A stretch of 64,000 nt of DNA from contig JAIPHJ010000004.1 in the NCBI GenBank assembly GCA_021735245.1, forward strand, positions 14,652 to 78,651, read 5' to 3'. The stretch's first letter is position 1; every line of letters starts with the position of its first letter. Source of the DNA: Candidatus Bipolaricaulota bacterium (lineage in GTDB: Bacteria; Bipolaricaulota; Bipolaricaulia; M55B111). Position numbers and translations under genes: made by a program. The notes beneath the pieces were generated by a model. That model worked only from the letters and a program-made list of their open reading frames with translations, searched no databases and was not told the DNA's origin. Shown piece after piece: positions 7,346-53,270 of this stretch.

Positions 7346-8830
7346 TTATTCCTCTACTTTAAAAGCATATCGAAAGTGATAACCCTGGGGATGAGAGCCC
7401 CAGTTCAAAAACGGCCGACGGTATATGAATGGAACCTCAAATGCTTCCTTGGCAAAATTCCATTGCTTTTCGATTGTCGGGTAGATATCTATGATGTGCC
7501 AGCCAGGACTTCCGGTTGCTTTGAATTTTCCTTCGACGATTCCCGGAATATCGCCACCACAGACGTAACCAATATAGGCATTATCGTACAAAATCGTTGC
7601 CTGGTTCCAGGTTTCATTCCATCCCACCCCTTGCCCATTTAAGGTAATCTGAGTACCAACGGGGCCACTTTTGGGTTTCAACTCTTCAAGGACAGGAAGA
7701 ACGATTACGGACGTTGTCGCTACTTTTTCACCATCAATGACAGCGTGTATCGGCTGAGGGCCTCCCTGGACCGACTCCGGTGCGGGTGTAATCTGAGTAG
7801 ATAACTTTCCATCATCGCTCACAGTAGCGTTTTTAGTCAGCACAGTCGTCTCCGTATACTCCTCATTTTTTCTTACATCCTCGCGTAAATCGTTTCCCTC
7901 TATTAGTGACCAGGTTAATTTAACCTGAGCCCTCGGAGGAAACCCAAATCCTTCCACCGTGACGGAATCATTGACCGGAATTGCCCGTTCGCGCGTAGTC
8001 AGAAAGGCACCATCTTCAGGTTTGGGGTTACCGTTTTCCCGGAGTACCTCATCCGGAATTTGCTCATCTATCGGGGGTGGCAATTCTGGTTGACCTTCGG
8101 TCAGTTCAAAAGTCCAGGATAGATCGACTGTCCCCGGCATTGAGGTCAAACCGATGTGAGATTGACGGTAAGATCCAGTGTTGCCAAACGGGCACCGCTC
8201 CACATCAATTACGTGAGGGCCCGGCCTGCCGGTTGCCGGAATGTTTATTTTGGTAGTCCCTTTTGGAGTTACAGGGCTGATCATCCCTGTATGCTTATTA
8301 TCGTAATAAATGTGGTAAACCGAATTGTCTACTGAACGGGGAACTGGAAGGGGTAGACCACGTGCCGTGATGGTTATAGGAGACCCTAACGTCCCTGAGT
8401 CCGGCTCAACAGAGAAACTGGGAACTACCAGAATTCTTACTTTATTGACCCTCTTATCTTCACTGATAAGGTAAATATCATGCGAAGCGCCGTAGTCTTC
8501 CGGTACTTCAATATTCGTAAGGAATTTCCCTTGCTGGTCTGTTTCCACCGATGCAAGGATCTTCTGCCTTTCCTGGTGCTGAAAACCCAGAAACTTCCCC
8601 CATAAAACACCATCAGAATTCCTTTCTACGTCCCAATCTGCCTCGTAAGAACGCCACAATAACTGGTACTCTCGTTCTGGTGGCAAGCCTTCTCCTCGAA
8701 CTTCTACCTCTTCACCAACATTAGCCTCTTCTGGCGTTAGGTTTAACTCCCCCTGAAAACCTTCCTCGGGAGTGGGCATTTCGTTCAGATCTCTAATAAT
8801 CCCTTCTTCACTTCCTTTAACCTTTGTCAT
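7346..8830 (-). CDS. Hypothetical protein, internally duplicated beta-rich (Ig/TIG-like) modules, no signal peptide
   Basis: 494-aa uninterrupted ORF with an (A-B)(C-D) module duplication visible in the sequence (see finding). I recognise no family. Confidence 0.7.
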   Translation of the reverse strand: MTKVKGSEEGIIRDLNEMPTPEEGFQGELNLTPEEANVGEEVEVRGEGLPPEREYQLLWRSYEADWDVERNSDGVLWGKFLGFQHQERQKILASVETDQQGKFLTNIEVPEDYGASHDIYLISEDKRVNKVRILVVPSFSVEPDSGTLGSPITITARGLPLPVPRSVDNSVYHIYYDNKHTGMISPVTPKGTTKINIPATGRPGPHVIDVERCPFGNTGSYRQSHIGLTSMPGTVDLSWTFELTEGQPELPPPIDEQIPDEVLRENGNPKPEDGAFLTTRERAIPVNDSVTVEGFGFPPRAQVKLTWSLIEGNDLREDVRKNEEYTETTVLTKNATVSDDGKLSTQITPAPESVQGGPQPIHAVIDGEKVATTSVIVLPVLEELKPKSGPVGTQITLNGQGVGWNETWNQATILYDNAYIGYVCGGDIPGIVEGKFKATGSPGWHIIDIYPTIEKQWNFAKEAFEVPFIYRRPFLNWGSHPQGYHFRYAFKVEE

Positions 8831-8853
8831 TTTCCCCTCCTCCTTTCACAAAT

Positions 8854-8888
8854 AAGATAAGGGGGCCAATTTATGACCCCCTTATCTT
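8854..8888 (-). repeat. Intercistronic hairpin (12-bp perfect stem)
   Basis: aagataaggggg (8854-8865) pairs perfectly with cccccttatctt (8877-8888) around an 11-nt loop. It lies between the Tat-signal gene and the 494-aa gene. On the minus strand it is followed by only a weak T-rich tract. Confidence 0.5.
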
Positions 8889-8930
8889 ACTAAATATTGA
8901 TACTGATCGTAAAGCAAATAACAATAAAAT

Positions 8931-9524
8931 CTATCTTTCCTCTATAGTCAAAGCACGAGGGAAGGTTTCTACGTTTTTGTCCCCAAACATCTCTAGCTTG
9001 CCCGTTCCGCCTTCCTTGTCCTTGGCCGTTATCGAATAAGTCATTTTACCCGTTGAAGCACCAGGTGAAATCTTCCAGCTACCTGCCCAGAAATAAACCT
9101 TGGGTGTTTCGTCTGGCGGATGTTCGCCATGGTGCATGTCTATCTTTTCACCGTTCTCCAACTCTACCTGTAACTTCAGCCCTCGTTCCTGGATTTCCGC
9201 GTGATCATTAATTTTTTCACCCGTCTTTCCGCTAAAGGTGACGGCGTGCCAGACGACCGTTTCTCCCTTCTTGAACGTGCTGGATAGCTCACACGGTGCC
9301 CCGGTACCTTGAACAACACCGCCACCACCTTTAACTACTTCGTTCACTATCACGTAATCCTGTCCTTCTGCTGCAGCGGCTTTGAAGTTGGTTACGGCGA
9401 GAGAGCTGAATGCGATGCCACCAACTGCTGCTGCGGCACCTTTGATAAAGTCTCGACGATTCAAGTTTTCAAGAAGACTTCCTTCCTCTTCCGGCGTTTC
9501 AATTTCTTTGACTTCTTCGGTCAT
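8931..9524 (-). CDS. Hypothetical secreted protein with twin-arginine signal
   Basis: Tat motif NRRDFIKGAAAAVGGIAFSSLAV. I prefer the start at the second ATG (9524), because GGAGG lies 8 nt upstream and the first ATG of the ORF track is embedded in that SD. The mature part is beta-rich and His-rich (DMHHGEHPP). Confidence 0.75.
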   Translation of the reverse strand: MTEEVKEIETPEEEGSLLENLNRRDFIKGAAAAVGGIAFSSLAVTNFKAAAAEGQDYVIVNEVVKGGGGVVQGTGAPCELSSTFKKGETVVWHAVTFSGKTGEKINDHAEIQERGLKLQVELENGEKIDMHHGEHPPDETPKVYFWAGSWKISPGASTGKMTYSITAKDKEGGTGKLEMFGDKNVETFPRALTIEER

Positions 9525-37714: not shown

Positions 37715-37790
37715 TGGTGGAGGCGACCGGATTCGAACCGGTAACCTCCTGAGTGCAAATCAGGCGCTCTTCCGTTAGAGCTACGCCCCC
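37715..37790 (-). tRNA. tRNA-Ala (anticodon UGC), CCA encoded
   Basis: The reverse complement reads GGGGGCGTAGCTCTAACGGAAGAGCGCCTGATTTGCACTCAGGAGGTTACCGGTTCGAATCCGGTCGCCTCCACCA. The acceptor stem is 7 bp and has the G3:U70 alanine identity pair. The anticodon stem is CCTGA/TCAGG with loop TTTGCAC. The T-loop is GGTTCGAATCC. Confidence 0.93.
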
Positions 37791-38506: not shown

Positions 38507-38535
38507 TTGACTTAACGGATATTAAACAATATAAT
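38507..38535 (+). promoter_or_regulatory. Near-consensus sigma70-type promoter upstream of the recombinase gene
   Basis: TTGACT (38507-38512), an exact 17-nt spacer, then TATAAT (38530-38535). It lies 55 nt upstream of the ATG at 38591. Confidence 0.5.
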
Positions 38536-38590: not shown

Positions 38591-39142
38591 ATGAATAAAC
38601 GAGAGATCAACAGATTAGACAGAAAAGAGTTTGAGTTGCTATGGGAGGCAGCGGTCGAAGGTGACCCCCTGGATCGGCTCATATTTGTTTGTGCGGGCCA
38701 TTTGGGAATGAGGGCTTCGGAAATTGCCCACCTGAAAAAAGACTGGATAGACTTTCAGAGTGGAACGGTCGAAGTTCCTAAGGAGGACGGGGAATTCCAG
38801 GCAAACGGGAGTTCTCGGTCTATTCCATTCAAACACCTTCGAGACAGGGTAGCTACAGAACTAAGAAGATATTTTGACTACAACTGGGTTGTAGGGGTCA
38901 ACAGGGCAACGATTTTTAGGCGGGTAAAAAATATGGCTCAGCGGGCTGATTTAACCCATAAGGTCCACCCACAGGCTTTAAGATCGACCTGTGCTTTCCA
39001 ACTAGCCGAAGCAGGGGTAAATGCTCAAGGATTGAGGCAGTTTATGGGCTGGAAGGAATTAAATACGGCCCAGAAGTATATTGAAGAGGTTGGAGTGGAT
39101 GCTAAAAAGCAGATAAAGAGGAACAAGGATAAGCTCTGGTAA
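38591..39142 (+). mobile_element. Minimal tyrosine recombinase / integrase (catalytic domain only, 183 aa)
   Basis: Catalytic-domain residues are in the expected order: R in HLGMRASEI, H-x-x-R in HPQALRSTCAF, and the terminal nucleophile Tyr in MGWKELNTAQKYI. There is no N-terminal core-binding domain. Confidence 0.75.
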
Positions 39143-39214: not shown

Positions 39215-40753
39215 ATGATAATATCTACTGATGTTTTTACGTATTTCTTTTTGGTCTTTTGCGGGCTTTACAATGGATTCCTATTTTTAAGCTTTATGTG
39301 GTTTTCTGTAAGTCTGAAGATCCTCAAGAATAAGAAACAAACGAAACCTTCGATCGGCAAATCCGACTTGCCCACCATCACTATTATGATCCCCCTACTG
39401 AACGAGGAAAACGTAATTGAAAACTCCATCACTAGATTGCTGGAAATGCCATATGAAGGTAAATTAGAAGTACTCGCCGTGGACGATAATAGTGCCGATG
39501 TAACTCCAGTAATTTTGTCTCGGTTGAGCAAAAACAAATCGGATTTTTATTATCTCCAGAGAAACCAACCCAGGGCTCAAATAGGTAAGGGCGACGTGCT
39601 TAATCAGGGATACGATTATTTACGATATAAGAAATTTCCGAACCGAGACCCTGATAACTGGATAATCGGAGTATTTGACGCGGACGGCAGGCCGGTAGAG
39701 AGAGACTTCTTCTCTAAAGTCGGAGAGCTTTTCGTTGACCCGGAAGTATCCGCTGCTCAATGTGGCGTCAGAATAAGAAATACATCCAAGCTAATTGCGG
39801 CTCTTCAGGATGTCGAATTCTCTACTTTTTCATTTATGACACAGATAGTAAGGGATAATACTTCCGGCGCAGTAGCACTTGGGGGTAACGGTCAGTTTAT
39901 CCGGGCCTCTTCGCTCGACAGCGTGAGGGCGGACGATAGATACTGGAACAACAGTGCCCTCACGGAGGATTTGGAGATAGGAACGAGGATACTGCTGTCG
40001 GGAGGACGGATTAGATTCATCAACAGGTGGGTCAGCCAGGAGGGTGTGGAATCAGCCCGGGCTCTCTTCAAGCAGCGGATAAGATGGGCCTGGGGAGCAC
40101 TGCAGGTTTTTATGAGTTACGTGCTCGGGGGTAAAATTCTCCGATCTTCCATACCGACCCGGCGTAAAATCGATCTCCATTACTATTTGAGCTTCTGGAT
40201 CGTGCCTTTTGTCGTAATGGCTACGCTGGGATTATTTCTACTGGACCAGGTGAACTTAATTACTATCGCAAATAGGTTTGGATTGATATTCTTGCTCATA
40301 AATTCATTCAGCTTTATTCCTCTTATCCTGACGGGATTAATCTGGGCCGGGGTAGGCTGGAGGAGAATACTCTATCTAACCCCAGTAACTATCGTATATA
40401 CCTATCACTGGATACCTGTTCTATTTGTCGCCTTCTTCAAGATTCTTACCAGTAGGAAACCTCACTGGGTGAAGACTGAGCGGTACGAGGAGTACGCGCA
40501 TAACGAAGCTTACCAGCCTCGAGGGACGAAACTGGGTGATATCCTGGTGGACCTGGGTATTTGTTCACCGGAGTTAATCAGTAAAGCGCTGGAACAGCAA
40601 AGTTTAGGCCAGCATAAGGAACTTCTGGGCGAGATTTTGACGAATAAATTGGGTCTAACAGAATCCGAACTGGCCTACGCAATGGATGTTCAACGGCACT
40701 TACTCAAGGATAGTTACCCGGAAGAGGCCTTCCAGGTAAATTATACTACATAA
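39215..40753 (+). CDS. Processive family-2 glycosyltransferase (polysaccharide synthase) with C-terminal MshEN-like c-di-GMP-binding motif pair
   Basis: GT2 motifs are present in order: VDDNS, FDADG, ALTEDLEIG (TED) and KQRIRWAWG (QxxRW). TM segments flank the catalytic domain. The C-terminal tail is KLGDILVDLGICSPELISKALEQQ ... LLGEILTNKLGLTESELAYAMDVQ. Confidence 0.8.
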   Translation: MIISTDVFTYFFLVFCGLYNGFLFLSFMWFSVSLKILKNKKQTKPSIGKSDLPTITIMIPLLNEENVIENSITRLLEMPYEGKLEVLAVDDNSADVTPVILSRLSKNKSDFYYLQRNQPRAQIGKGDVLNQGYDYLRYKKFPNRDPDNWIIGVFDADGRPVERDFFSKVGELFVDPEVSAAQCGVRIRNTSKLIAALQDVEFSTFSFMTQIVRDNTSGAVALGGNGQFIRASSLDSVRADDRYWNNSALTEDLEIGTRILLSGGRIRFINRWVSQEGVESARALFKQRIRWAWGALQVFMSYVLGGKILRSSIPTRRKIDLHYYLSFWIVPFVVMATLGLFLLDQVNLITIANRFGLIFLLINSFSFIPLILTGLIWAGVGWRRILYLTPVTIVYTYHWIPVLFVAFFKILTSRKPHWVKTERYEEYAHNEAYQPRGTKLGDILVDLGICSPELISKALEQQSLGQHKELLGEILTNKLGLTESELAYAMDVQRHLLKDSYPEEAFQVNYTT

Positions 40754-40893: not shown

Positions 40894-42003
40894 ATGTTCG
40901 ATTTAAATGCTGTAAATAATCAGCTGAGGAGGTACTTTGTCAAAAAGTATCTAGTTTTAGGACTAGTCATCCTTATGGGATCGAGTTTATTGGTCTCGCT
41001 CCCCGTAATGGGTCAGTTATTAGACCCTTCACGATGCAACTATAAGCCAATTCACGGGACCTGGTATATAGGATGGGATAGCGGAAGTTATGCATCCGGA
41101 ACAGTAGAAAGGGATTTATACAGGATAAAGAACGGTCTGTGTTCTGCTTATATTTCTCTACAGGCTAACGTCTATCAGGACAATAAGTATTCCAGCGATC
41201 CCTATATAGGTGTTAGAACAGTAGACGACGAAACTATGGCCAATGTAGTGAATAAAGTTCACGAGTTAGGTATGAAGGTGGTTCTTTTGACCCCCCTTCG
41301 CCCTGACGATGGAACCTGGGAAGGGGAGATACAGCCCAGAGACCTGGAAACTTGGTTCGATCACTGGGAGCAAATACTCGTTCATTACGCTAAGTTCGCC
41401 GAGGAACACGAGGTAGACGTTTTGCTTCTCGGGTCGGAGCTCCCCACTTTGAGGGATGTTTCCGGGAGATGGAAGGAAATTATTGCAGAGGTCCGAAAGT
41501 ACTATTCGGGAGAGATCAGCTTCTCGGTGAACTTCTGGACCAAGAGGTCTGAGTTCAGAGCAGTGCTAAATATGACTCAATGGGAAGACATGGACTACAT
41601 TGGCATCACGGGTTATTTTGAATTAACCCCTTCCAATAATCCTTCAATTGACCGATTAAGACGGGCCTGGTCTTCGGACCTGCACGGCCAGAACGTACTG
41701 AAGGACTTAAAGAGGATCAGAAATAAGTTCGATAAGCCCGTAGTATTCTGGGAAATAGGCTATCAGAGCAAGAACGGAACAAATACCTACCCCTGGAATT
41801 ACCTGAAAGAAGGTAAAAAAGACGAAGGTGAGCAAAGGGACAGCTGGATAGGATTTTTACAGGCTATCAAGGATAAAGATTGGATCCACGGGTTCATGGC
41901 ATTTGCGGAGCAGGTAGGTTTACCCGAAGACAAGCCAGGTTACCACGGTTACAATATGTTAGGAAAAAGAACTCAGACTGTTTTCTGTAATATCTGCCAG
42001 TAA
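40894..42003 (+). CDS. Membrane-anchored clan-GH-A-like glycoside hydrolase (tentative)
   Basis: 369-aa ORF with an N-terminal hydrophobic anchor (YLVLGLVILMGSSLLVSLPV). The candidate acid/base lies in LLLGSELPTL and the candidate nucleophile in VVFWEIGYQS, about 105 aa apart as in (beta/alpha)8 clan A enzymes. AGGAGGAG SD upstream. Confidence 0.55.
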   Translation: MFDLNAVNNQLRRYFVKKYLVLGLVILMGSSLLVSLPVMGQLLDPSRCNYKPIHGTWYIGWDSGSYASGTVERDLYRIKNGLCSAYISLQANVYQDNKYSSDPYIGVRTVDDETMANVVNKVHELGMKVVLLTPLRPDDGTWEGEIQPRDLETWFDHWEQILVHYAKFAEEHEVDVLLLGSELPTLRDVSGRWKEIIAEVRKYYSGEISFSVNFWTKRSEFRAVLNMTQWEDMDYIGITGYFELTPSNNPSIDRLRRAWSSDLHGQNVLKDLKRIRNKFDKPVVFWEIGYQSKNGTNTYPWNYLKEGKKDEGEQRDSWIGFLQAIKDKDWIHGFMAFAEQVGLPEDKPGYHGYNMLGKRTQTVFCNICQ

Positions 42004-42101
42004 CCTCTTCAGATGCTCTTACAGGGCGGAGCATTAGCTTCGCCCTATTCAATCACAAAATCATCTGAAATAATATTTTAGCTTATATAAAGAGGAAGGT
42101 C

Positions 42102-42869
42102 ATGGAAAAATATTCTGAAGCAATTAATCGAAGATATGAATACAAATATTTAATCGGGCGGGAACTTGTCAGGGGAGTTACGGGTTTTCTATCTCAGTAC
42201 CTGGAGCTAGACGAATATTGCAGGGAAAGGGAAAATAACAGTTACACCGTGAGGAGTATTTATTACGATAACCCCAGATTTACGTGTTTCCACGAAAAAC
42301 TCGACGGGCAGAAATACAGGGAGAAGTTCAGGATCAGAACTTACAACAATCCGGGTACCGCTTCTATATTTCTGGAAGACAAGAAGAAGAATGGATCATT
42401 TTACGAAAAACGCCGGGCCGAACTCAGTGAGGATACAATGAGAATAATAGATGATCCCCATTTTGACGGTAATGAGGAAAGGCCCATACCTGAAAAGGAT
42501 AAATCGCTTATTGAGAGATTTCTCTTTCACCTCCGTGGTAAAGCTTATTTTCCCGCAGCACTGGTTGCTTACGACCGCGAGGCCTACGTAGAACCTGGTG
42601 GCAATAATATCAGAGTTACCCTGGACAAGAACCTTAGAGCGGCGTCATTTCCCAGCCTGGATCAGATATTCGAGGAAGAAAGATTGGAGTACATACTGTA
42701 TAACTGGATCATTTTAGAAGTCAAGTTCTCTCAGCTCTTGCCGAGGTGGCTCAAACGGTTAGTCTCGTTATTCAATCTCAATCGCCAGGCCTGTTCCAAG
42801 TACTGTACCAGCCTAGGACATTTCCTGGGAGAAGCCCCCGAGTTAAAAGGAAGTGTGGCTAATGTTTGA
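42102..42869 (+). CDS. VTC-domain (CYTH/triphosphate-tunnel, polyphosphate-polymerase-like) protein
   Basis: 255-aa ORF with RRYEYKYLI at the N-terminus, VRSIYYDNP, REKFRIRTY (basic tunnel residues) and IILEVKF. This is the pattern of bacterial VTC-domain proteins. Confidence 0.75.
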   Translation: MEKYSEAINRRYEYKYLIGRELVRGVTGFLSQYLELDEYCRERENNSYTVRSIYYDNPRFTCFHEKLDGQKYREKFRIRTYNNPGTASIFLEDKKKNGSFYEKRRAELSEDTMRIIDDPHFDGNEERPIPEKDKSLIERFLFHLRGKAYFPAALVAYDREAYVEPGGNNIRVTLDKNLRAASFPSLDQIFEEERLEYILYNWIILEVKFSQLLPRWLKRLVSLFNLNRQACSKYCTSLGHFLGEAPELKGSVANV

Positions 42870-43548
42870 TCAACTCGATCCTGCTGTAATTTCTCTGGTT
42901 GACGTAGTTATTGCAATTACCGTCACTTTATTCCTCGGACTTTTCATAGGCTTTATCTATAGAAAGGTTACTCCGGGTTCCAGTTATTCAGTTTCAATAC
43001 TGTATGCCTTGCTTTATCTTTCGATGATAGTCTCCCTGGTGATGATGATAATTTCTAACCAGATTGCCCGTGCCTTCACCCTTGTAGGTGCCCTTTCGGT
43101 AATCAGATTTCGGACGCCCATCAAGGATGCAAAAGATACTGCTTTTATTTTCCTCGCTCTTGCCGCTGGAATGGGAACGGGCGTTGGATTATATATGGAG
43201 ACGATTCTGGGCACCGGGCTTATTGGGATATTCATATTATTAATCCATCGCTCAAGAGTTGGCCTCCAGATGAGTAAAGAAACTTTAGTTAAATTCACCA
43301 TCCCTCTTACCAACGGAAAGGACACTTCCTATCATCAAGAGGTTTTCGAAAGCTTTCTGCGAGATTATAAACTGGTAAATACCAGGTCTCTACAGGACAG
43401 CGATAGACTGGAGTTAACGTTTCTGGTGAAACCACTGGGAACCACCGAAAACATTAAATTCTCCCAGGCACTATCCTCCGTACCCGATATTCAAAGGGTG
43501 TCGGTAATGGCACTGGACGAAGAAGATTTTACCAGTAACGTCCTCTAG
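42862..43548 (+). CDS. DUF4956-family membrane protein
   Basis: It has four N-terminal hydrophobic segments, including the family hallmark LSVIRFRTPIKDAKDTAFIFLALAAGMGTG, followed by a soluble C-terminal domain. The ATG at 42862 overlaps the VTC stop (ATGTTTGA). The ORF track gives a GTG at 42853. Confidence 0.72.
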   Translation: MFDQLDPAVISLVDVVIAITVTLFLGLFIGFIYRKVTPGSSYSVSILYALLYLSMIVSLVMMIISNQIARAFTLVGALSVIRFRTPIKDAKDTAFIFLALAAGMGTGVGLYMETILGTGLIGIFILLIHRSRVGLQMSKETLVKFTIPLTNGKDTSYHQEVFESFLRDYKLVNTRSLQDSDRLELTFLVKPLGTTENIKFSQALSSVPDIQRVSVMALDEEDFTSNVL

Positions 43549-43570
43549 CGATTAATAAAGGAGAATAAGC

Positions 43571-46030
43571 ATGTCTGATACTATAGATTTCCGCCGGAAA
43601 GGTATTTTCGTCGTTCTGTTTCTTGGCCTGCTGGCTCTGATCCTGGTTGATTTTATGGTTTCGTCCCAGCCAGAATCCGTCGTTATAAACGAACTTTTAG
43701 CCTCCAATCAGGAAAGGCTTGCTGACGGTGACGGAGATCTCGAAGACTGGGTAGAGCTGTATAACCCGACCAATGAAGCAATTAACTTAGAAGGTTATAC
43801 CTTAACGGATAGGCCAAAAAACCCGACGAAATGGAGGTTTCCGGACGTTACAATTAATCCTAAGGGGTTTTTGCTTCTCTGGGCTTCCGGAAAAGACCGG
43901 CGAGCTCCCGGTAATTGGGACTTCAAAACACCTCTCAATCTGAAGTTTGAGAGTGCGGGCTATTCCGCCGGGAATTTTGCCAGCATACTGATCAATGGGA
44001 AAGAGAAATCCTTCAACCAAAGGGGGATAAACATAGCCAGACTCGATGAGGATGGCAATTTCGTGGAAAACACTGCATACGATACCTGGGCAACCCGGGA
44101 AGCCGCAGATAGTTTGGTTCGGTATTTAGACAAATTGCCGAAGGGAGATATCGTCGTATTTACAATTAAGGATGAGGCATCTCAAAATCTGCATGCGAGA
44201 GCTCGATCGGCTCTGGAGGAACTGGGGAGCGAATACATCGGCCGGCTTTCCTACTGGGATTCCTGGGGAATGATCGCGGTTGTGGGAAAAGATAAATTAT
44301 TAGAAGTCTACAAAACCAGCGGTGAGGGTGTTGCTACGGGCTCATTAGTAAGTAAGATGAATTTACATACTAATTTTAACCTGAATACAAACGGGGAGTC
44401 TTTGAACTTATTCGCTCCGAATGGTACCCTCGTGGACTCGCTGGATTTTAAGCAACAGGTCCAGAACGTTTCTTTCGGCCGCCACCCTGATGGCGGGAAT
44501 GACTGGTGTTATTTTTCTAAGCCAACGCCGGTTGGGCCCAATAATACCGCGTGTGCTACTGGAGTGACAAATACTCCCAGATCTTCTATTAAGAGAGGAT
44601 TTTACGAAGAACCCGTTAAAGTAAAACTTACTTCCTCCGGCAACTCGAAACTTTACTATACTTTAGATGGTTCCGTACCCACTAAAGCAAGCCGACAATA
44701 TTCCAAACCTCTGGTCATCGAGGAGACGAAAGTACTTCGGGTCCGGGCGTTCAAGGACGGCCTGATTCCCAGCGAAGTCCTAACCAGAACCCTTTTCATC
44801 AATCAATCCCATAGCCTGCCAGTTCTCTCGCTGATAACCGATCCAGCAAACTTATGGGAGGAGTACACCGGAATCTATACTGAGGGTCGCTATCCAGCCC
44901 ATCCAAATTACCTGCAGCGGGGAGGAGACTGGGAGCGACCGGCCGTTTTTGAATTCTACGAAGATGACACCTCCCTAGGCTTTGTCTTAACTGCCGGTAT
45001 TAGGATTCATGGGGGATACACCAGAACTTACCCTAAAAAAAGCTTTAGGCTGCACTTCTCAAAAAAATATGGTAAGGAAGAACTAAATTATCCAGTATTC
45101 ACGGAAGAGGGATTCGCTAAACCCGACTCAACTGGGTTTAAACACTTGATCATCAGAAATGCGGGACAGGACGGTTATGGTAGCAGGCCCCGAATTCGCG
45201 ACCCTCTATTGCACGCCCTCTGGGCAGAAGAAGGAGGTTTATTCTCCGCGAAAAGATCGGCTTTCGTATACCTTAATGGAGAGCCGTGGGGTATTTATAA
45301 CATTCGGGAGCGAATTGACGAACACTATATTGCCTCGAATTCTACCGGGAAAGTTACAGATCTTATCAAAGCCACGAACGTCGTGAAAGGTAATGTATTT
45401 CATTGGAGGAAAACTCTCGATTACTTCGAACATTCTGATTTGAGCGAGGAGGATAACTATGCACGAGTACAGAAATTCATAGACATAAATAACTTTACTG
45501 ACTTTTGGATCTTCCAAATTTACAGCGCAAACGTCGATATTGACGGAAATCTGATAAAATACCGAGCTGAGTCATCCGAGGGAAAATGGAAGTGGATACT
45601 ATGGGATATGGACATGGCCCTGGGTTTGTATCCAGAGGCACCCTCACATAATACCCTTGTGTGGCATACAAGAGAAAAACATAGGCCAGCTTATGGCCAC
45701 GACTGGGCTGATGGCGATCTACGCATTCCCATGATGCTTAGAAAGTTACTGGAAAACGAAGAATACCGCAGTTACTTTATAAACCGATTTGACCAGCTGC
45801 TGAACACAACCCTGCACCCGGACCACGTTGTTGCCACGATCGATGAACTGGCCTCGATCATCGAGCCGGAAATCCCCCTGGAGATGGAGCGCTGGAGTGA
45901 TGAGTGGGGAGGCTCATCAGTCGAAGAATGGCAGGCCCACCTCAACGGACTACGCGAATTTGCCAGACGGCGCCCACGATATCTGCGAGAGCACATAATT
46001 GATTACTTTGAGCTAACTGATTTTCGGTAA
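43571..46030 (+). CDS. Membrane-anchored multidomain CotH-family kinase (LTD + ILEI/GG-like + CHB_HEX_C-like + CotH)
   Basis: 819-aa ORF with an N-terminal anchor (GIFVVLFLGLLALILVDFMV). The lamin-tail-like segment is INELLASNQ...DWVELYNPTNEAINLEGYTLTD. The ILEI/FAM3-like segment is GINIARLDEDGNFVENTAYDTW...IVVFTIKDEAS...WDSWGMIAVVGK. The chitobiase-C-like segment is LYYTLDGSVPTKASRQYSKPLVIEETKVLRVRAF. The CotH core contains IRIHGGYTRTYPKKSFRLHF. Confidence 0.8.
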   Translation: MSDTIDFRRKGIFVVLFLGLLALILVDFMVSSQPESVVINELLASNQERLADGDGDLEDWVELYNPTNEAINLEGYTLTDRPKNPTKWRFPDVTINPKGFLLLWASGKDRRAPGNWDFKTPLNLKFESAGYSAGNFASILINGKEKSFNQRGINIARLDEDGNFVENTAYDTWATREAADSLVRYLDKLPKGDIVVFTIKDEASQNLHARARSALEELGSEYIGRLSYWDSWGMIAVVGKDKLLEVYKTSGEGVATGSLVSKMNLHTNFNLNTNGESLNLFAPNGTLVDSLDFKQQVQNVSFGRHPDGGNDWCYFSKPTPVGPNNTACATGVTNTPRSSIKRGFYEEPVKVKLTSSGNSKLYYTLDGSVPTKASRQYSKPLVIEETKVLRVRAFKDGLIPSEVLTRTLFINQSHSLPVLSLITDPANLWEEYTGIYTEGRYPAHPNYLQRGGDWERPAVFEFYEDDTSLGFVLTAGIRIHGGYTRTYPKKSFRLHFSKKYGKEELNYPVFTEEGFAKPDSTGFKHLIIRNAGQDGYGSRPRIRDPLLHALWAEEGGLFSAKRSAFVYLNGEPWGIYNIRERIDEHYIASNSTGKVTDLIKATNVVKGNVFHWRKTLDYFEHSDLSEEDNYARVQKFIDINNFTDFWIFQIYSANVDIDGNLIKYRAESSEGKWKWILWDMDMALGLYPEAPSHNTLVWHTREKHRPAYGHDWADGDLRIPMMLRKLLENEEYRSYFINRFDQLLNTTLHPDHVVATIDELASIIEPEIPLEMERWSDEWGGSSVEEWQAHLNGLREFARRRPRYLREHIIDYFELTDFR

Positions 46031-46186
46031 TAAAAATGCCAAAAACCAGGAAGGAAAATCTTCAAGTCAATACGGTTTTTGCTGACGAAAGGTCCGTGGC
46101 AGGGCTTATATTTCCAGATCATTCCCGTAACCATTGAGGCTAACCCAGCAAAAAAGTATGAATTTGCCAGTGAGGGGGATAAATAA
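46031..46186 (+). pseudogene. In-frame relic of the CotH C-terminal repeat module behind a TAA-TAA double stop
   Basis: The same frame as CotH continues after TAATAA as KCQKPGRKIFKSIRFLLTKGPWQGLYFQIIPVTIEANPAKKYEFASEGDK. This resembles the W-G-x-YF...PVT-x-x-A-x-P...Y-x-F tail found on many CotH proteins. Confidence 0.4.
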
Positions 46187-46667
46187 CTCCCAGATAACCA
46201 TAACTATTTCACTGGATAAAAACTTACACTCAAGGCACTTATTTGACCCTCACAACAATATATCCCTCTTTTATTTGAGTTAGAAAGTTTGTTTTTGTTA
46301 GCCCGCTAAATTGTCCATCGGTGAAGAGTTCCGCCAGTTTTCTTCGAGCTTTTAATCGTGGGACCCATTTCCTTTAATGAAGCCATTTGGGGTAAAGAAA
46401 TCGCTTTAATCGCGCTATCTCAGAACAGAGGGTGGGGCATTACGCCCGATTCATGGACTTGCCACGGCGATTTCAGTTTAATTAAACCTTGCGGATTCAT
46501 CCCCGTTCACAGGACGGGGTATTCTCCGTGAAACAATAGTTGTCGGTGGCGAGCTAATCCTGTAGGAAAATGAAATGGGAACAGGGAAGATCAAAAACCC
46601 GTCCTTAGTTGGTGCTGACATTTGCTTCATCTCTTGCAGTTATCTTCTTCCTGCAGCGCCTCCTGCT

Positions 46668-47095
46668 TTAATGAACGCTGCCTCTCTGCCGCTTTGCCCA
46701 GGAATCCAATTCCTTGATTTTCTCAAGATTCCGGGACAAAAAGTACCGGTAGGCTCCACAGAGATAGGATTTACCTTCCGGCCCACCCGGTAGCCCCCTG
46801 TAACGCTGGCAACCTCCATAGCAGTAGGGAAGGAAGTCACAGTTCTTGCATTCCCCGGTGAGATTTACTCTGCCTTCCGCAAAACTTCTGAACTCCTCTC
46901 CGCTGGCTATCTTCGGAGGGACCTCTCATTTAAGTTACCAAGTTTCTGGTCCTCCACCACGAAGAAGTCACAGGGGTAGATGTCCCCGTTGTGTTCTACT
47001 ACCAAGTAGGAACCACAGCGAGCATCAATCTTGCACATGGCAGGTTCGTTGCCCCGGGTAACGTTTACCAACGACTCGAAGTAACTGATTTTCTC
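46668..47095 (-). pseudogene. 3' remnant of a radical-SAM/SPASM maturase (anaerobic sulfatase-maturase-like), frameshifted and 5'-truncated
   Basis: On the minus strand, the upstream part reads ...CKIDARCGSYLVVEHNGDIYPCDFFVVEDQKLGNLNERSL. A frame change occurs near 46915-46925. The remainder reads EEFRSFAEGRVNLTGECKNCDFLPYCYGGCQRYRGLPGGPEGKSYLCGAYRYFL. The radical-SAM core is absent, because the FGGY gene ends at 47101. Confidence 0.7.
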
Positions 47096-47100
47096 TCAAA

Positions 47101-50487: not shown

Positions 50488-52146
50488 ATTATTAAAACTA
50501 CAAGATTCCTCACGCTAATTCTGATTATTATCCTGCTGACCCTGGTTGGTTACCAGACCTCGAAAAGGGTTCACTGGGACTTAACGACCAAGAATTACTC
50601 CCTGGCTACCCGTTACGAGGACATCGAGAGGACGAGTTCCCTCTACGGGGAAACGGAACTTGGTCTTATCGATAAGCTGAATCGGGCCGGCAATAACCTA
50701 ATTCTATTCCGTACTGATCTGGCGGTCGAACGGGGGTTCGTTCTACCGGGGTTAGTAGACGACCTAAAGGAAAAAGCAATTGCCCGGGGAGTTGAAGTAT
50801 CAAACCTTCAGCTGGCCGGTGAGCAAGAATACCGGCAAGTACTTGACTATTTAAACAAAATCGAACCGAAATTTGTCGTTCTCAGAGGTTTGCGAGGAGT
50901 AGACCTGCCCTCCTACCTCACGCACTGGCTCCGGCAAAACGACGTCATTCTGGGGACGGTGGAATTCAGGAACAGGGAAACGACTGAAAAACTGGTAAAC
51001 GAACAGAATCTGGACTGGGTAAGGCTCCACAGGGTATTCGACAAGGAAATCGGAACTCTGACCCGGGCTGAAATGAGGGCTAGATACGAGAGAGCTATCC
51101 GGGAGAGAAACATAGGCGTAATAGAATACAGGCTGTCACCAAACCAGGATCTTCAGACCCAGATAGAAACCCTTACTGCTATCCGCGATGAAACGGCCAA
51201 ATCCGGTTACCGGATCGGACCGATCGAAGCTGTCAGGGGAACCGGTAAGGGGGTGGAGTCTTCGCGCTGGCTAATTCTCGGTCTGATAGTGGTTTCTTTC
51301 GGACTCGTATTCCGGTTCTTATTTCTTGACAGGGGCTCTCACACGATCCTAATTTTCTGGATACTGGCTTCCACTGTCGGAGGAGCTATAGGTCTCGCCC
51401 TTTTCCCAACTCTTACGCGTCAGGCAGCTGCTCTAGTACTGGCCGTCACCGCCCCGCTCGTAGGTTACAAATTACTGAAAGAATACGGGTTGTCGTTTAA
51501 AACGGGGCGAAGCCTGCTGAGTCCTTTCCTGGATTTAATCTGGGTTTCGGGATTCTCGACCATCGCGGGATTGTTGGTCTCGACCATCCTACTTGACGAA
51601 TCGTTCGTCCTTAAACTCCAGCAGTTTCGAGGGGTTAAAGTGGCCTTATTCTTCCCGCTGCTACTGCTTGCTGTCGTGGCCTTCCGTCGGTACGGAATAA
51701 GTTTTTCAGAGATAAAATTCGATTACAAAGCCGGTCTCCTCGGGGCTGGCCTCCTTGGACTTTTCCTCTTTCTGCTATTCAGGAGCGGTAATTTTAGCTT
51801 CCTAAGAAGCGGCGACCTGGAAGAGGCGATCAGAAGATGGCTCGAGAATACCCTGTACGTAAGACCCAGGTTTAAGGAGTTCGCCCTGGGTCATCCGAGC
51901 CTGATCGCCTGGCTTTATCTCGCCGGCCGCTACGGAGGGAAGTTTCATTTTTGCAAGCTCCCCCTGCTGATGGTAGGATTTATCGGCCAGATATCCGTAA
52001 TCAACACGTTTTCCCATATTCATACTCCCCTCGTCGTCTCACTAATTAGAACTGGAAACGGTTTAGCAGGGGGGCTAATCCTGGGAGGAATATTACTCGC
52101 CGTTATCCTCGGGGGTGAATACGTTTGGAATCTTCGAAGAGGATAA
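50488..52146 (+). CDS. Polytopic membrane protein accompanying csaB (DUF5693-like), apparent non-canonical start
   Basis: The frame is open from 50449. The N-terminal TM helix FLTLILIIILLTLVGY and about 130 further conserved-looking residues precede the first ATG/GTG/TTG in frame (TTG at 50890). ATT codons at 50488 and 50491 follow an AAAGGGG SD-like element. The C-terminal half has about 9 TM segments. Confidence 0.55.
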   Translation: MIKTTRFLTLILIIILLTLVGYQTSKRVHWDLTTKNYSLATRYEDIERTSSLYGETELGLIDKLNRAGNNLILFRTDLAVERGFVLPGLVDDLKEKAIARGVEVSNLQLAGEQEYRQVLDYLNKIEPKFVVLRGLRGVDLPSYLTHWLRQNDVILGTVEFRNRETTEKLVNEQNLDWVRLHRVFDKEIGTLTRAEMRARYERAIRERNIGVIEYRLSPNQDLQTQIETLTAIRDETAKSGYRIGPIEAVRGTGKGVESSRWLILGLIVVSFGLVFRFLFLDRGSHTILIFWILASTVGGAIGLALFPTLTRQAAALVLAVTAPLVGYKLLKEYGLSFKTGRSLLSPFLDLIWVSGFSTIAGLLVSTILLDESFVLKLQQFRGVKVALFFPLLLLAVVAFRRYGISFSEIKFDYKAGLLGAGLLGLFLFLLFRSGNFSFLRSGDLEEAIRRWLENTLYVRPRFKEFALGHPSLIAWLYLAGRYGGKFHFCKLPLLMVGFIGQISVINTFSHIHTPLVVSLIRTGNGLAGGLILGGILLAVILGGEYVWNLRRG

Positions 52147-53270
52147 CCATATCGGGCTATTACGGATTCGGAAACCTGGGAGACGAAGCAATTCTCGAAT
52201 CACTGGTCACTTCGCTCAGGGATAGGTTTGGGAAAGGAGAACCGGTAATTGTCGTCTTAAGCAACGAGCCCGAAAGAACGGAAAAAGATCACGGAGTGAG
52301 GGCCACCAACAGGTGGAACCCCGTAGCCGTATTCCGAACTCTGAAAAATAGCGAGGTGTTGATAAGTGGAGGTGGTGGTCTGCTTCAGGATAGAACGAGC
52401 TCCCCGTCTCTCTGGTATTATTTAACCCTGCTATATCTCGCCCGAATTCTCTCCGTGCCAGCTTACGTAGTCGGCCAGGGGATCGGTCCGGTAAACAAGA
52501 AATACAACGAACTTTTACTCCGGGGAGCAATAGCTGGAATTAAAGGCTTCCACGTCAGGGACGATCGAAGCGCCGAGTTGTTGAGGTCATTCGGCGTAGG
52601 AGACGATAAATTAATTGTTGGAGGCGACCTGGCTTTCCTGCTTTCCGGGACCGGTACCGACAGGAACGAGTACCTAAATTATCCGGACAGGGAAATCGTC
52701 GGGGCGGCTCTAAGAAGCGACGTGGAGGGCCGTTCTGACGTGCTCAGGGCTGTCTCCAGCGGCCTGGATATGTTGTCCGAAAAGTTCGACGTCAACGTAG
52801 TCCTTTTCTCCACAAACTCCCTGTCGGACGCGGATCTCAATACCGACCTGCAGGACTCTACCGAAGTTCCCTGCAAAATCATCGATGTTGACCATCTTTC
52901 CCCCGCTCAGCTCGTTGAAATGATGGGGGACCTGGAGCTGGTCATTGCCGGGAGGTTACACGCCCTGATATTTTCCCTTCTCAGTAAAACGCCGGTTCAG
53001 AGTATTAGCTACGATCCAAAGATGGACCTCCTGATCGAAGAGCTGAACGATCCGGACGCTAATCCTGGCCTATCAATCTGGCAACCGGACGATTTAATCA
53101 ACGCTACCAAGTACCTGTCGGACCTGGAGTCAATCTATCGCCAAAGGACGGAGCTAAGGGAGAAAGTCACCAGAGCAAGGGACGAGATCGTCCAGAAAAC
53201 GGAAGAGAAAATGGACCCGGCTCTCGACTGGATCGAGGAGGAGCTCGCAGGTGAAAGACGAACAGGATAA
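52125..53270 (+). CDS. csaB: Polysaccharide pyruvyl transferase
   Basis: N-terminal ISGYYGFGNLGDEAIL, then GGGGLLQD and GRLHALIF motifs characteristic of CsaB. It overlaps the upstream membrane-protein gene. Confidence 0.85.
   Translation: MESSKRITISGYYGFGNLGDEAILESLVTSLRDRFGKGEPVIVVLSNEPERTEKDHGVRATNRWNPVAVFRTLKNSEVLISGGGGLLQDRTSSPSLWYYLTLLYLARILSVPAYVVGQGIGPVNKKYNELLLRGAIAGIKGFHVRDDRSAELLRSFGVGDDKLIVGGDLAFLLSGTGTDRNEYLNYPDREIVGAALRSDVEGRSDVLRAVSSGLDMLSEKFDVNVVLFSTNSLSDADLNTDLQDSTEVPCKIIDVDHLSPAQLVEMMGDLELVIAGRLHALIFSLLSKTPVQSISYDPKMDLLIEELNDPDANPGLSIWQPDDLINATKYLSDLESIYRQRTELREKVTRARDEIVQKTEEKMDPALDWIEEELAGERRTG

Follow-up and report, generated by a model that had tools for sequence, protein, structure and literature searches.

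VTC-domain and DUF4956 proteins are obligate partners, and a CotH-family kinase is frequently encoded beside them. In Candidatus Bipolaricaulota bacterium, the resulting VTC-DUF4956-CotH trio closes a same-strand run of genes with a GT2 polysaccharide synthase and a GH113 hydrolase at its start, within the 64,000-nucleotide stretch of DNA that was analysed here (the window). Our preferred, still tentative reading of this arrangement is that of an exopolysaccharide run ending in a portable "phosphate module", the trio, that would decorate or condition the polymer or the cell surface. The three open reading frames carry the VTC, DUF4956 and CotH domains given in the preliminary description, as checked against Pfam, and the same three genes result from an independent gene call on an identical metagenome contig. 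The reported overlap between the end of VTC and the start of DUF4956 is real and measures 8 nt: the ATG of DUF4956 sits within the 3' end of VTC (ATGTTTGA), with AAGGAAG 8 nt 5' of it. The gap between DUF4956 and CotH is 22 nt, as claimed, and includes AAGGAG.

The distribution of the three families was surveyed in a sample of 80 species-representative loci, collected through DUF4956 and spanning many phyla. VTC lies at most 10 kb from DUF4956 in 76 of them and immediately precedes it in 74; the four loci lacking a nearby VTC are contig ends. The two genes overlap by 8-26 nt in seven of the eight gene-called loci. The proposed conservation of the VTC-DUF4956 linkage is thus borne out, the two forming a near-invariant and mostly translationally coupled pair. 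The broader claim of a three-family linkage holds as well, and chance does not account for it, but CotH is a common and optional neighbour of the pair. CotH is found at a distance of 10 kb or less in 44 of the 80 loci and, when only the 42 well-covered loci are considered (flanked by 8 kb or more on either side), in 25, in 24 of which it is within 3.5 kb. Since it is missing from about 40% of the well-covered loci, CotH is better described as a facultative client than as an obligatory third part. In 40 of the 80 loci, VTC is directly preceded by a periplasmic adaptor of a distant MacA/EmrA/AcrA type (profile E 2.6e-7 over residues 136-341), an arrangement that points to transport across the envelope; in many of these adaptor-type loci, glycan genes are missing from the neighbourhood. 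The link between the trio and the neighbouring synthase, also suggested previously, is strengthened by two observations. A natural GT2::VTC fusion (P0122), confined to one 90% cluster but found in two independent data sets, has DUF4956 and a CotH orthologue downstream, and its GT2 half is 50% identical to the window synthase. Moreover, a DUF2334-GT2-GH113-VTC-DUF4956-CotH cluster is conserved in relatives. Another surface-glycan cluster has the trio at its head.

All the features located here lie on the plus strand of the window. Upstream of the gene run, the best sigma-70-like promoter match (TTGACT-17-TATAAT, 38507..38535, 11/12) is no more than a consensus match, and promoter-like sites are not clearly more numerous here than in shuffled controls. 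A short tyrosine-recombinase-like ORF of 183 aa, made up of the catalytic domain only (38591..39142; Pfam PF00589, E 2e-19), has no homologue adjoining the cluster in the other loci compared; DUF2334 occupies its position in the related clusters. The membrane-embedded GT2 synthase (39215..40753; Pfam GT2 families) carries an MshE-related c-di-GMP-binding domain at its C terminus (residues 439-492), scores 45.4 bits against NCBIfam NF053729 (cut-off 38) and is partially similar to the XrtP-associated GT and to PgaC/IcaA. It is also NfrB-like: NfrB-type synthases share its GT2 catalytic domain, membrane helices and C-terminal MshE-related domain. Nevertheless, in sequence it resembles NfrB itself only distantly (E 6e-10, well short of the cut-off), and we saw no NfrA-like outer-membrane partner for it. 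The GH113-family glycoside hydrolase (369 aa, 40894..42003; Pfam PF22612, E 1e-44) is N-terminally anchored, its translation showing a hydrophobic segment at that end, and it likely trims or releases the polymer. The position of its gene is identical in four relatives (L003, L004, L088 and L089). The spacer between GH113 and VTC (42004..42101) is predicted to be structured (-28.3 kcal/mol, z -4.2), none of 200 shuffles being equally stable. It contains a 10-bp hairpin at 42023-42046, and in the predicted fold the ribosome-binding region of VTC is base-paired with the 5' end of the spacer. The spacer matches no Rfam family and, since it is missing from relatives, is a local feature.

The soluble VTC-domain triphosphate-tunnel protein (255 aa, 42102..42869; PF09359, E 2e-46) has no hydrophobic segment in its sequence and is predicted to be cytoplasmic. 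Its profile matches the catalytic domain of Vtc4 (3G3Q, E 8e-23), while the non-catalytic Vtc2/3 score worse. The invariant residues K15, R77, R79, K94, K103 and Y157 correspond to Vtc4 K200, R264, R266, K281, K294 and Y359, and R159, R171, E206, S232 and K233 to R361, R373, E426, S457 and K458; every Vtc4 catalytic tunnel residue that could be mapped is kept, and all are invariant among 20 diverse bacterial VTC proteins. The protein is accordingly a candidate polyphosphate polymerase, although the tunnel residues are common to triphosphate-tunnel enzymes with other activities and are not in themselves proof of this one; the literature searched yielded no biochemical data on any bacterial VTC protein.

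The DUF4956 protein (228 aa, 42862..43548; PF16316, 51.3 bits, cut-off 30.6) had been described as having four hydrophobic segments, but the AlphaFold2 model, a monomer of moderate confidence (pLDDT 70), gives five helices instead and, after them, an ACT-like C-terminal domain in the cytoplasm. Positive-inside analysis indicates an N-out, C-in topology. Both the model and the charge distribution place the invariant basic motif IRFRTPIKD (residues 81-89, codons at 43102..43128) where helix 3 ends on the cytoplasmic side; in 62 sequences, R82, F83, R84 and T85 never vary, and K88 and D89 recur in at least 90%. In this topology, the RFRTPxKD motif and the ACT-like domain would both be on the side of VTC, the cytoplasm. 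The protein is MgtC-like: it matches MgtC/SapB weakly (NCBIfam E 0.002), PF02308 is detected on some homologues, and a Foldseek search with the model returned ACT/ferredoxin-like matches only, including the MgtC C-domain 2LQJ, with no solved relative of the membrane part. The MgtC/SapB/YhiD family has the same succession of several helices and a cytoplasmic ACT-like domain, but DUF4956 forms a separate Pfam family, PF16316, has its own invariant signature (ARAF...IRFRTPxKD...GMGxG) and, unlike MgtC, is linked to VTC in genomes. No relationship to the yeast VTC channel subunits was detectable.

The yeast and protist VTC complex combines the Vtc4 catalytic tunnel domain with a Vtc1/2/3/4 transmembrane channel (3G3Q, 7YTJ, 8I6V), and an analogous catalytic-plus-channel pairing had been proposed for the window. 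The catalytic half of the analogy has support in sequence, the window VTC being homologous to the Vtc4 tunnel domain and having its catalytic set; no such kinship links the membrane halves, as the partner here is an MgtC-like protein unrelated to the three-helix channel subunits of yeast. The window VTC also differs in having no SPX domain and in being a separate soluble protein, and the putative product would be destined for the cell exterior instead of the vacuole. Yet, as both systems unite a cytoplasmic catalytic domain with a membrane component, a model in which synthesis is coupled to translocation is a reasonable one to work with.

The CotH-family kinase (819 aa, 43571..46030; Pfam) has a single N-terminal hydrophobic segment preceded by RRK, which suggests an N-in anchor with the bulk of the protein outside. 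This upholds its predicted extracytoplasmic location, and nearly all the CotH neighbours in other phyla have signal peptides or anchors. The protein comprises LTD (32-143), ILEI (151-239), CHB_HEX_C/Fn3_assoc (342-407) and CotH (477-805) domains, and its CotH domain profile matches B. cereus CotH 5JD9 with an E of 6e-55. In the alignment, D656, N660 and D679 fall on the catalytic loop and on the metal-binding Asp (B. subtilis D228 and D251). The catalytic Asp is present in the window CotH and in 12 of 14 aligned sequences, two lacking it, and every one of the 14 retains the Asn and the metal-binding Asp; the active site of the window kinase is intact. It thus shares the kinase-like fold family and these three residues with the Bacillus spore-coat kinase (5JD9/5JDA), but differs from it in being signal-anchored and extracytoplasmic, in the 470 residues, with LTD, ILEI and chitobiase-C domains, that precede the kinase domain, and in having neither a sporulation context nor a nearby Ser-rich substrate of the CotB/CotG type. 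We know of no protein-kinase-fold enzyme that uses polyphosphate as donor.

Gram-positive pel loci contain cotH, polyphosphate-polymerase, DUF4956 and DUF4832 accessory genes (Whitfield et al. 2020, PMC7112168), and the trio-containing accessory genes of S. intermedius are SIR_1591-1594 (mBio 2025, PMC12345266). The trio was correctly said to have no known function, but its linkage had already been published in these two papers. The latter (PMC12345266) reported no finds of it outside Pel loci; nevertheless, it does occur outside them, in the window and in many other loci. The Pel accessory operon and the window have in common an operon that unites the three families next to a synthase-dependent exopolysaccharide system, an extracytoplasmic glycoside hydrolase, a secreted CotH, and a DUF4956 with a membrane part and a cytoplasmic ACT-like domain. 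They differ in that the window has no pel genes, its synthase being a GT2 that resembles PgaC and NfrB and has a c-di-GMP domain of the MshE type, that its hydrolase is GH113 instead of a DUF4832 protein, and that its host belongs to the Bipolaricaulota.

Several scenarios may explain this arrangement. One, possible if somewhat unlikely, is that two separate functions share an address. VTC-DUF4956, joined in diderms by the adaptor, would make and export polyphosphate as an end in itself, for instance to serve as a matrix polyanion, to chelate cations or to store phosphate outside the cell, a notion in line with the bacterial PPK-independent extracellular polyphosphate now reported (PMC13484657). 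CotH would be an ordinary Ser/Thr kinase of secreted or surface proteins, dependent on ATP like the CotH protein kinases characterised so far (PMC7821199) and supplied with it before or during export or by leakage from cells, and the genes would cluster because all serve the envelope or biofilm. The pair indeed lacks CotH in 36 of the 80 loci, 21 have a bare adaptor-VTC-DUF4956 unit, and Bipolaricaulis anaerobius has VTC-DUF4956 without CotH. Yet, where CotH is present it is close by, as counted above, and generally shares an operon with the pair; its N-terminal domains belong to glycan-binding types, and the trio travels as one between different synthase systems. A signal-anchored kinase would also be without an ATP source outside the membrane.

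The phenotypes of S. intermedius raise another scenario, regulation, which we consider improbable. Deletion of VTC has no aggregation phenotype there, whereas those of DUF4956 and CotH do, with Pel going up in the former and down in the latter (PMC12345266), a pattern that a regulatory role explains no less well than a linear donor pathway would. Regulation is also what the authors of the two Pel papers suggested (PMC7112168, PMC12345266). DUF4956 would be an MgtC-like regulator governing phosphate/ATP homeostasis or a partner enzyme, consistent with its weak MgtC similarity and the ligand-binding type of its ACT-like domain, and VTC, at the cytoplasmic face, a tri-/polyphosphate sensor or hydrolase. 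Synthase output would be tuned post-translationally, in place of c-di-GMP or beside it, and CotH would phosphorylate a component of the secretion machinery. In the GT2::VTC fusion, VTC does take the C-terminal place of the c-di-GMP receptor domain of the window synthase. Nevertheless, the invariance of the Vtc4 catalytic residues in bacteria argues for catalysis over sensing alone, the frequent periplasmic adaptor fits poorly with a purely cytoplasmic regulator, and many loci have no nearby synthase to regulate. Finally, a non-enzymatic CotH, acting as a surface adhesin or scaffold like the Mucorales CotH invasins with a kinase fold that merely binds polyphosphate or polysaccharide, is suggested by its large extracellular multi-domain build and by the two aligned neighbours without the catalytic Asp, but is very improbable given the conservation of that residue in the window protein and most others and the invariant Asn and metal-binding Asp.

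In the preferred reading, that of a trio modifying the polymer or the cell surface, the c-di-GMP-responsive GT2 synthase would make and extrude a polymer and the anchored GH113 hydrolase would trim it outside the cell, roles assigned by similarity. The altered Pel level and aggregation of the S. intermedius DUF4956 and CotH deletions (PMC12345266) also count in favour of this reading. VTC would dock on a DUF4956 oligomer and polymerise phosphate from NTP, the chain being fed across the membrane; in diderm lineages, the added periplasmic adaptor would extend the export route. Outside the cell, CotH would phosphorylate the polysaccharide or surface proteins and, because ATP is not available there, would plausibly draw on the exported polyphosphate. 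Putative polyphosphate export feeding CotH is thus a plausible mechanism, and one that is now better supported.

The final part of a same-strand gene run in the window consists of genes for a VTC protein (42102-42869, +, 255 aa), a DUF4956 protein (ATG at 42862, end at 43548, +, 228 aa) and a CotH protein (43571-46030, +, 819 aa). The end codons of the VTC gene (ATGTTTGA) contain the DUF4956 ATG, which is preceded by AAGGAAG and gives an overlap of 8 nt, and a spacer of 22 nt containing AAGGAG separates DUF4956 from CotH. The three ORFs, their domains, the overlap and the gap had been reported in the preliminary description and are confirmed by the ORF list and raw sequence, by Pfam matches and by the same three gene calls on an identical contig of a public metagenome. 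The third protein carries the Pfam domains LTD, ILEI, CHB_HEX_C/Fn3_assoc and CotH. The trio is preceded by a GT2 synthase gene (39215-40753, +, 512 aa) and a GH113 hydrolase gene with an N-terminal anchor, assigned by Pfam (40894-42003, +).

The VTC protein matches PF09359 over profile positions 2-231 of 235 (158.7 bits, cut-off 23, E 2e-46). A profile of bacterial VTC proteins retrieves the catalytic domain of yeast Vtc4 (3G3Q, E 8e-23), and the non-catalytic Vtc2/Vtc3 more poorly (1e-12 to 1e-9). Twenty diverse bacterial homologues share 27 invariant positions in their alignment. Eleven catalytic tunnel residues of Vtc4 are identical in the window protein and invariant in these 20 homologues: K200 (K15 in the window), R264/R266 (R77/R79), K281 (K94), K294 (K103), Y359/R361 (Y157/R159), R373 (R171), E426 (E206) and S457/K458 (S232/K233). 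The Vtc4 numbering was mapped through the PDB alignment, together with the Vtc4 literature. The 255 residues of the window VTC contain no hydrophobic segment, SPX, membrane domain or second Pfam domain; in contrast to the eukaryotic VTC complex, neither this protein nor DUF4956 has a three-helix Vtc1-type transmembrane channel or an SPX domain. No characterised bacterial VTC protein was found in the searched literature.

The DUF4956 protein matches PF16316 (51.3 bits, cut-off 30.6). Four hydrophobic segments had been proposed for it; its AlphaFold2 model (62 sequences, mean pLDDT 70) has five helices instead (12-36, 44-64, 68-84, 90-108 and 111-131), followed by a beta-alpha-beta-beta-alpha-beta C-terminal domain. 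The charge distribution places the N-terminus outside, and the C-terminal domain and the loops with R34/K35, R82/R84/K88 and R130/R132 inside. Since the R82/R84/K88 loop is put inside, the invariant IRFRTPxKD motif would face the cytoplasm, the side of VTC. In Foldseek searches against the PDB, the membrane part had no match and no chain of the yeast VTC complex was retrieved; the C-terminal domain gave weak ACT/ferredoxin-like matches only, including the MgtC C-domain (2LQJ, E 0.018). DUF4956 shares with MgtC several helices and a C-terminal ACT-like alpha/beta domain, and some of its homologues also match the MgtC Pfam family; the window protein scores below the family cut-off of NCBIfam PRK09977 (MgtC/SapB; 17.8 bits, cut-off 214) and is, judging from these profiles, a distant relative only of the MgtC/SapB family.

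The conservation of the trio was studied by scanning one genome per GTDB species with the DUF4956 alignment, which confirmed at least 481 relatives among the 600 pattern matches listed. The best 80 of these, which come from many phyla and are the best matches rather than a random sample, were analysed by translating all ORFs from stop to stop and searching them with HMMs iterated from the window proteins in HMMER only. In 76 of these best 80 of at least 481 loci, DUF4956 has a VTC gene no more than 10 kb away, which in 74 is its immediate upstream neighbour on the same strand; the four VTC-less loci are each cut off by the contig edge on the relevant side. Of the eight gene-called loci, seven show an overlap of 8-26 nt between the two genes. 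The VTC-DUF4956 pairing is therefore near-obligate. CotH was found within 10 kb in 44 of the same best 80 loci, a count that misses any CotH gene located elsewhere in a genome; among the 42 of them with 8 kb or more of sequence on either side it is present in 25, in 24 cases within 3.5 kb. Of 52 CotH neighbours, at least 38 start with a clear hydrophobic signal or anchor, and most of the others with a weaker one. CotH is thus facultative but frequent, and extracytoplasmic by prediction. The linkage of three families that had been proposed stands for VTC and DUF4956, whereas CotH proved optional. That the pair and CotH share an address but have independent functions is a serious alternative to a common pathway.

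The arrangement of the loci varies around the pair. The order DUF4956-x-CotH-VTC occurs in two of the best 80 of at least 481 loci, from Magnetococcales and Pelagibacter, where the unannotated insert x differs from one found in Gemmatimonadota. The latter, a conserved protein of about 400-450 aa without annotation or Pfam match, is encoded between DUF4956 and CotH in seven loci from Gemmatimonadota and a planctomycete (L044, L051, L052, L054, L065, L072 and L077). In one locus three CotH paralogues precede the VTC-DUF4956 pair, while Bipolaricaulis anaerobius has Cthe_2159-VTC-DUF4956 without CotH. A locus from a 6.6-Mb genome (L084, 9724-12425) has a CotH of window-like architecture split into three consecutive ORFs (LTD and ILEI; CHB_HEX_C and CotH; CotH), due to either a pseudogene or long-read frameshifts. 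A large cluster of neighbouring proteins was considered as a fourth partner and rejected, as its sequences, judged by reading, look like unrelated secreted proteins that share only a type IX sorting-signal-like C-terminal tail; two divergent Gemmatimonadota CotH proteins were recovered from this misleading cluster by model iteration. Inspected by eye, the genes 3' of DUF4956 in the CotH-less loci look heterogeneous, with no outer-membrane or phosphatase partner recurring among them. In seven loci (L035, L041, L047, L049, L064, L067 and L079), an SdiA-regulated/phytase-like beta-propeller protein (PF06977, E 1e-18; PF13449, E 2e-12) is encoded no more than 7 kb from DUF4956, and directly 3' of it in at least four (L035, L047, L064 and L079).

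In 40 of the best 80 of at least 481 loci, from Ignavibacteriota, Bacteroidota, Calditrichota, Marinimicrobia and others (loci L005-L082; for instance L073, about 8100-9200), the gene immediately 5' of VTC encodes a protein of about 360 aa. The protein has an N-terminal helix and a coiled coil, and its profile retrieves the periplasmic adaptors MacA (E 2.6e-7, residues 136-341) and EmrA (4e-6), as well as ZneB and AcrA. Among the same best 80 loci, 19 have both adaptor and CotH, 21 the adaptor only, 25 CotH only and 15 neither. In many diderm lineages, VTC-DUF4956 accordingly has this putative, distantly MacA/EmrA-like adaptor as a partner, whether CotH is there or not. No periplasmic adaptor gene was found in the window, and no recurrent outer-membrane partner was seen at the adaptor loci. 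DUF2490 is a family of putative outer-membrane proteins. In Bacteroides thetaiotaomicron (BT3498-3499), a DUF4956 gene that is down-regulated under low iron is listed beside one for a DUF2490 protein (PMC10434189); this species could serve as a tractable model organism for the pair.

The CotH protein matches PF08757 with 164.5 bits (cut-off 23.8). A profile of its kinase domain retrieves Bacillus cereus CotH (5JD9) with E 6e-55 over residues 40-357, a match that needed the profile, as a single-sequence phmmer search of the domain against the PDB returned nothing. The window residues D656, N660 and D679 align with the NFD...N and WD motifs of B. cereus CotH and, by this alignment, would be the catalytic loop and the metal-binding Asp. 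Mutation of the counterparts D228 and D251 inactivates the B. subtilis enzyme (residue numbers from PMC7821199). Residues 11-30, after RRK, form a predicted signal anchor, which would put the remainder of the protein outside the cell, in agreement with the extracytoplasmic position that had been anticipated. The spore-coat CotH works in a sporulation context, on CotB/CotG-type substrates and in the mother-cell cytoplasm; the window protein shares none of these features and differs from it in its signal anchor, its extracellular domains and its exopolysaccharide operon context. No gene with a Ser-rich repeat of the CotB/CotG type was found near it.

The neighbourhood of the trio points to surface polysaccharides. 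Residues 439-492, at the C-terminus of the GT2 synthase, score 45.4 bits against NF053729 (MshE-related c-di-GMP-binding, cut-off 38) and represent a candidate c-di-GMP-binding domain. Relatives whose DUF4956 is 59-74% identical have the order DUF2334-GT2-GH113-VTC-DUF4956-CotH and the same CotH architecture. When the window VTC was searched against 1.84 billion representative proteins, 2,649 clusters were retrieved at E <=1e-10; the best 150 consist almost entirely of stand-alone proteins of 230-300 aa. The exception is P0122, a 718-aa fusion of a synthase orthologue (50% identity to the window synthase over 435 aa) and a VTC domain (residues 474-703), the latter at the C-terminal place that the c-di-GMP domain has in the window synthase. 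P0122 is encoded on two contigs from different sources (L086, 3251-5407; L087, 607-2763), and on both the next genes are DUF4956, which it overlaps by 11 nt, and an 822-aa CotH sharing 53% identity with that of the window. No second GT2::VTC fusion cluster was found in a collection of 5.8 billion proteins; since it is known from a single cluster, the fusion is supportive but rare. A marine contig has CotH-VTC-DUF4956 at the start of a surface-glycan cluster. The module is thus repeatedly embedded in surface-glycan loci, including one synthase fusion.

The window is not the first place where these genes have been found together. A conserved set of accessory genes made up of cotH, a polyphosphate polymerase gene, DUF4956 and DUF4832 was described beside pelDEADAFG in streptococci, clostridia and bifidobacteria (Whitfield et al. 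2020, PMC7112168). In Streptococcus intermedius, the DUF4832 protein is an active hydrolase; deletion of DUF4956 raises Pel and lowers aggregation, deletion of CotH lowers both, and deletion of VTC leaves aggregation unchanged (PMC12345266). This 2025 study reports no occurrence of the trio outside Pel loci (PMC12345266). The same gene order, with an adjoining chitin-synthase-like gene, is found in Clostridium perfringens NELoc-2. Like the Pel accessory module, the window has the three families contiguous in one operon, but it lacks pelDEADAFG and the DUF4832 hydrolase: their place is taken by a PgaC/NfrB-like GT2 and GH113, and no Pel or DUF4832 family match was found among the neighbours of the trio. 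The window module is therefore the one already described, here with a different synthase and hydrolase and in a different phylum. What appears to be new is the pair as invariant core, the periplasmic adaptor, the synthase fusion and the occurrence well outside Pel loci.

Several scenarios may explain this association. To our knowledge, there is no ATP outside the membrane. The preliminary description had proposed that VTC and DUF4956 export polyphosphate and that the secreted CotH kinase uses it, a mechanism that is plausible and somewhat strengthened by the present analysis. In that case, VTC would dock onto a DUF4956 oligomer, make polyphosphate and pass it outward, and CotH would phosphorylate the polymer or surface proteins using the exported polyphosphate. 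As a complete chain this proposal is tentative, and we would place it a little short of an even chance. A broader version would see in VTC-DUF4956 a widespread prokaryotic polyphosphate polymerase-translocase independent of PPK1/PPK2, which crosses the diderm envelope via a dedicated adaptor, and in the signal-anchored CotH proteins the first enzymes of protein-kinase fold that use polyphosphate instead of ATP, on exopolysaccharides or surface proteins outside the cell; this we consider improbable. Extracellular polyphosphate made independently of PPK is reported for the B. cereus group in a 2026 preprint, according to which this group lacks a VTC4 homologue (PMC13484657). Alternatively, VTC and DUF4956 could have a regulatory role, a serious rival favored by the deletion phenotypes of S. 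intermedius and by the fusion in which VTC stands in place of the c-di-GMP domain. An anti-phage defence system is not supported, as PADLOC gave no meaningful defence-protein match for any of six window proteins.

Acquisition of the cluster as an island is suggested by a tRNA-Ala upstream (37715-37790, -), a short tyrosine-recombinase-like ORF with the catalytic domain only (38591-39142, +) and a GC content of 0.43-0.45 over 36-44 kb against roughly 0.47-0.53 in most of the window. Nevertheless, a search up to 47200 for a direct att-like repeat of the tRNA end was negative, and this explanation was not retained. In relatives, DUF2334 stands in place of the recombinase gene. The top promoter-like match of the region (38507-38535) lies directly before the same-strand run, which is weak evidence. 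The GH113-VTC spacer (42004-42101, +) folds unusually well (-28.3 kcal/mol, z -4.2), with a 10-bp hairpin and a 5' end that pairs with the VTC ribosome-binding region; an Rfam search of this spacer matched no family, and the spacer is missing from related clusters. On the 3' side of CotH, about 1 kb of decayed sequence with broken ORFs (46031-47100) includes a SPASM-domain fragment (46907-47071, -, Pfam E 1e-6); located between the CotH and FGGY sugar kinase genes, it is what is left of a radical-SAM maturase gene. About 5 kb downstream, DUF5693 and polysaccharide pyruvyl transferase genes (50890-53270, +; Pfam labels from the identical contig) represent a further cell-surface glycan function near the cluster.

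These results bear on polyphosphate synthesis and its route out of the cell in bacteria without PPK, on the phosphate donor of a kinase working outside the membrane, and on the role of the conserved Pel-locus accessory genes in streptococci, clostridia and bifidobacteria. The comparison splits the hypothesis into testable parts, namely the VTC-DUF4956 core, the diderm adaptor, the CotH client and the synthase fusion, and the module is present in culturable, genetically tractable species. Should VTC-DUF4956 export polyphosphate, bacteria would have their own equivalent of the yeast VTC machine, built around an unrelated membrane part and relevant for biofilm chemistry, phosphate cycling and host interaction. 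Otherwise, the module would still be a conserved regulator or modifier of exopolysaccharide production.
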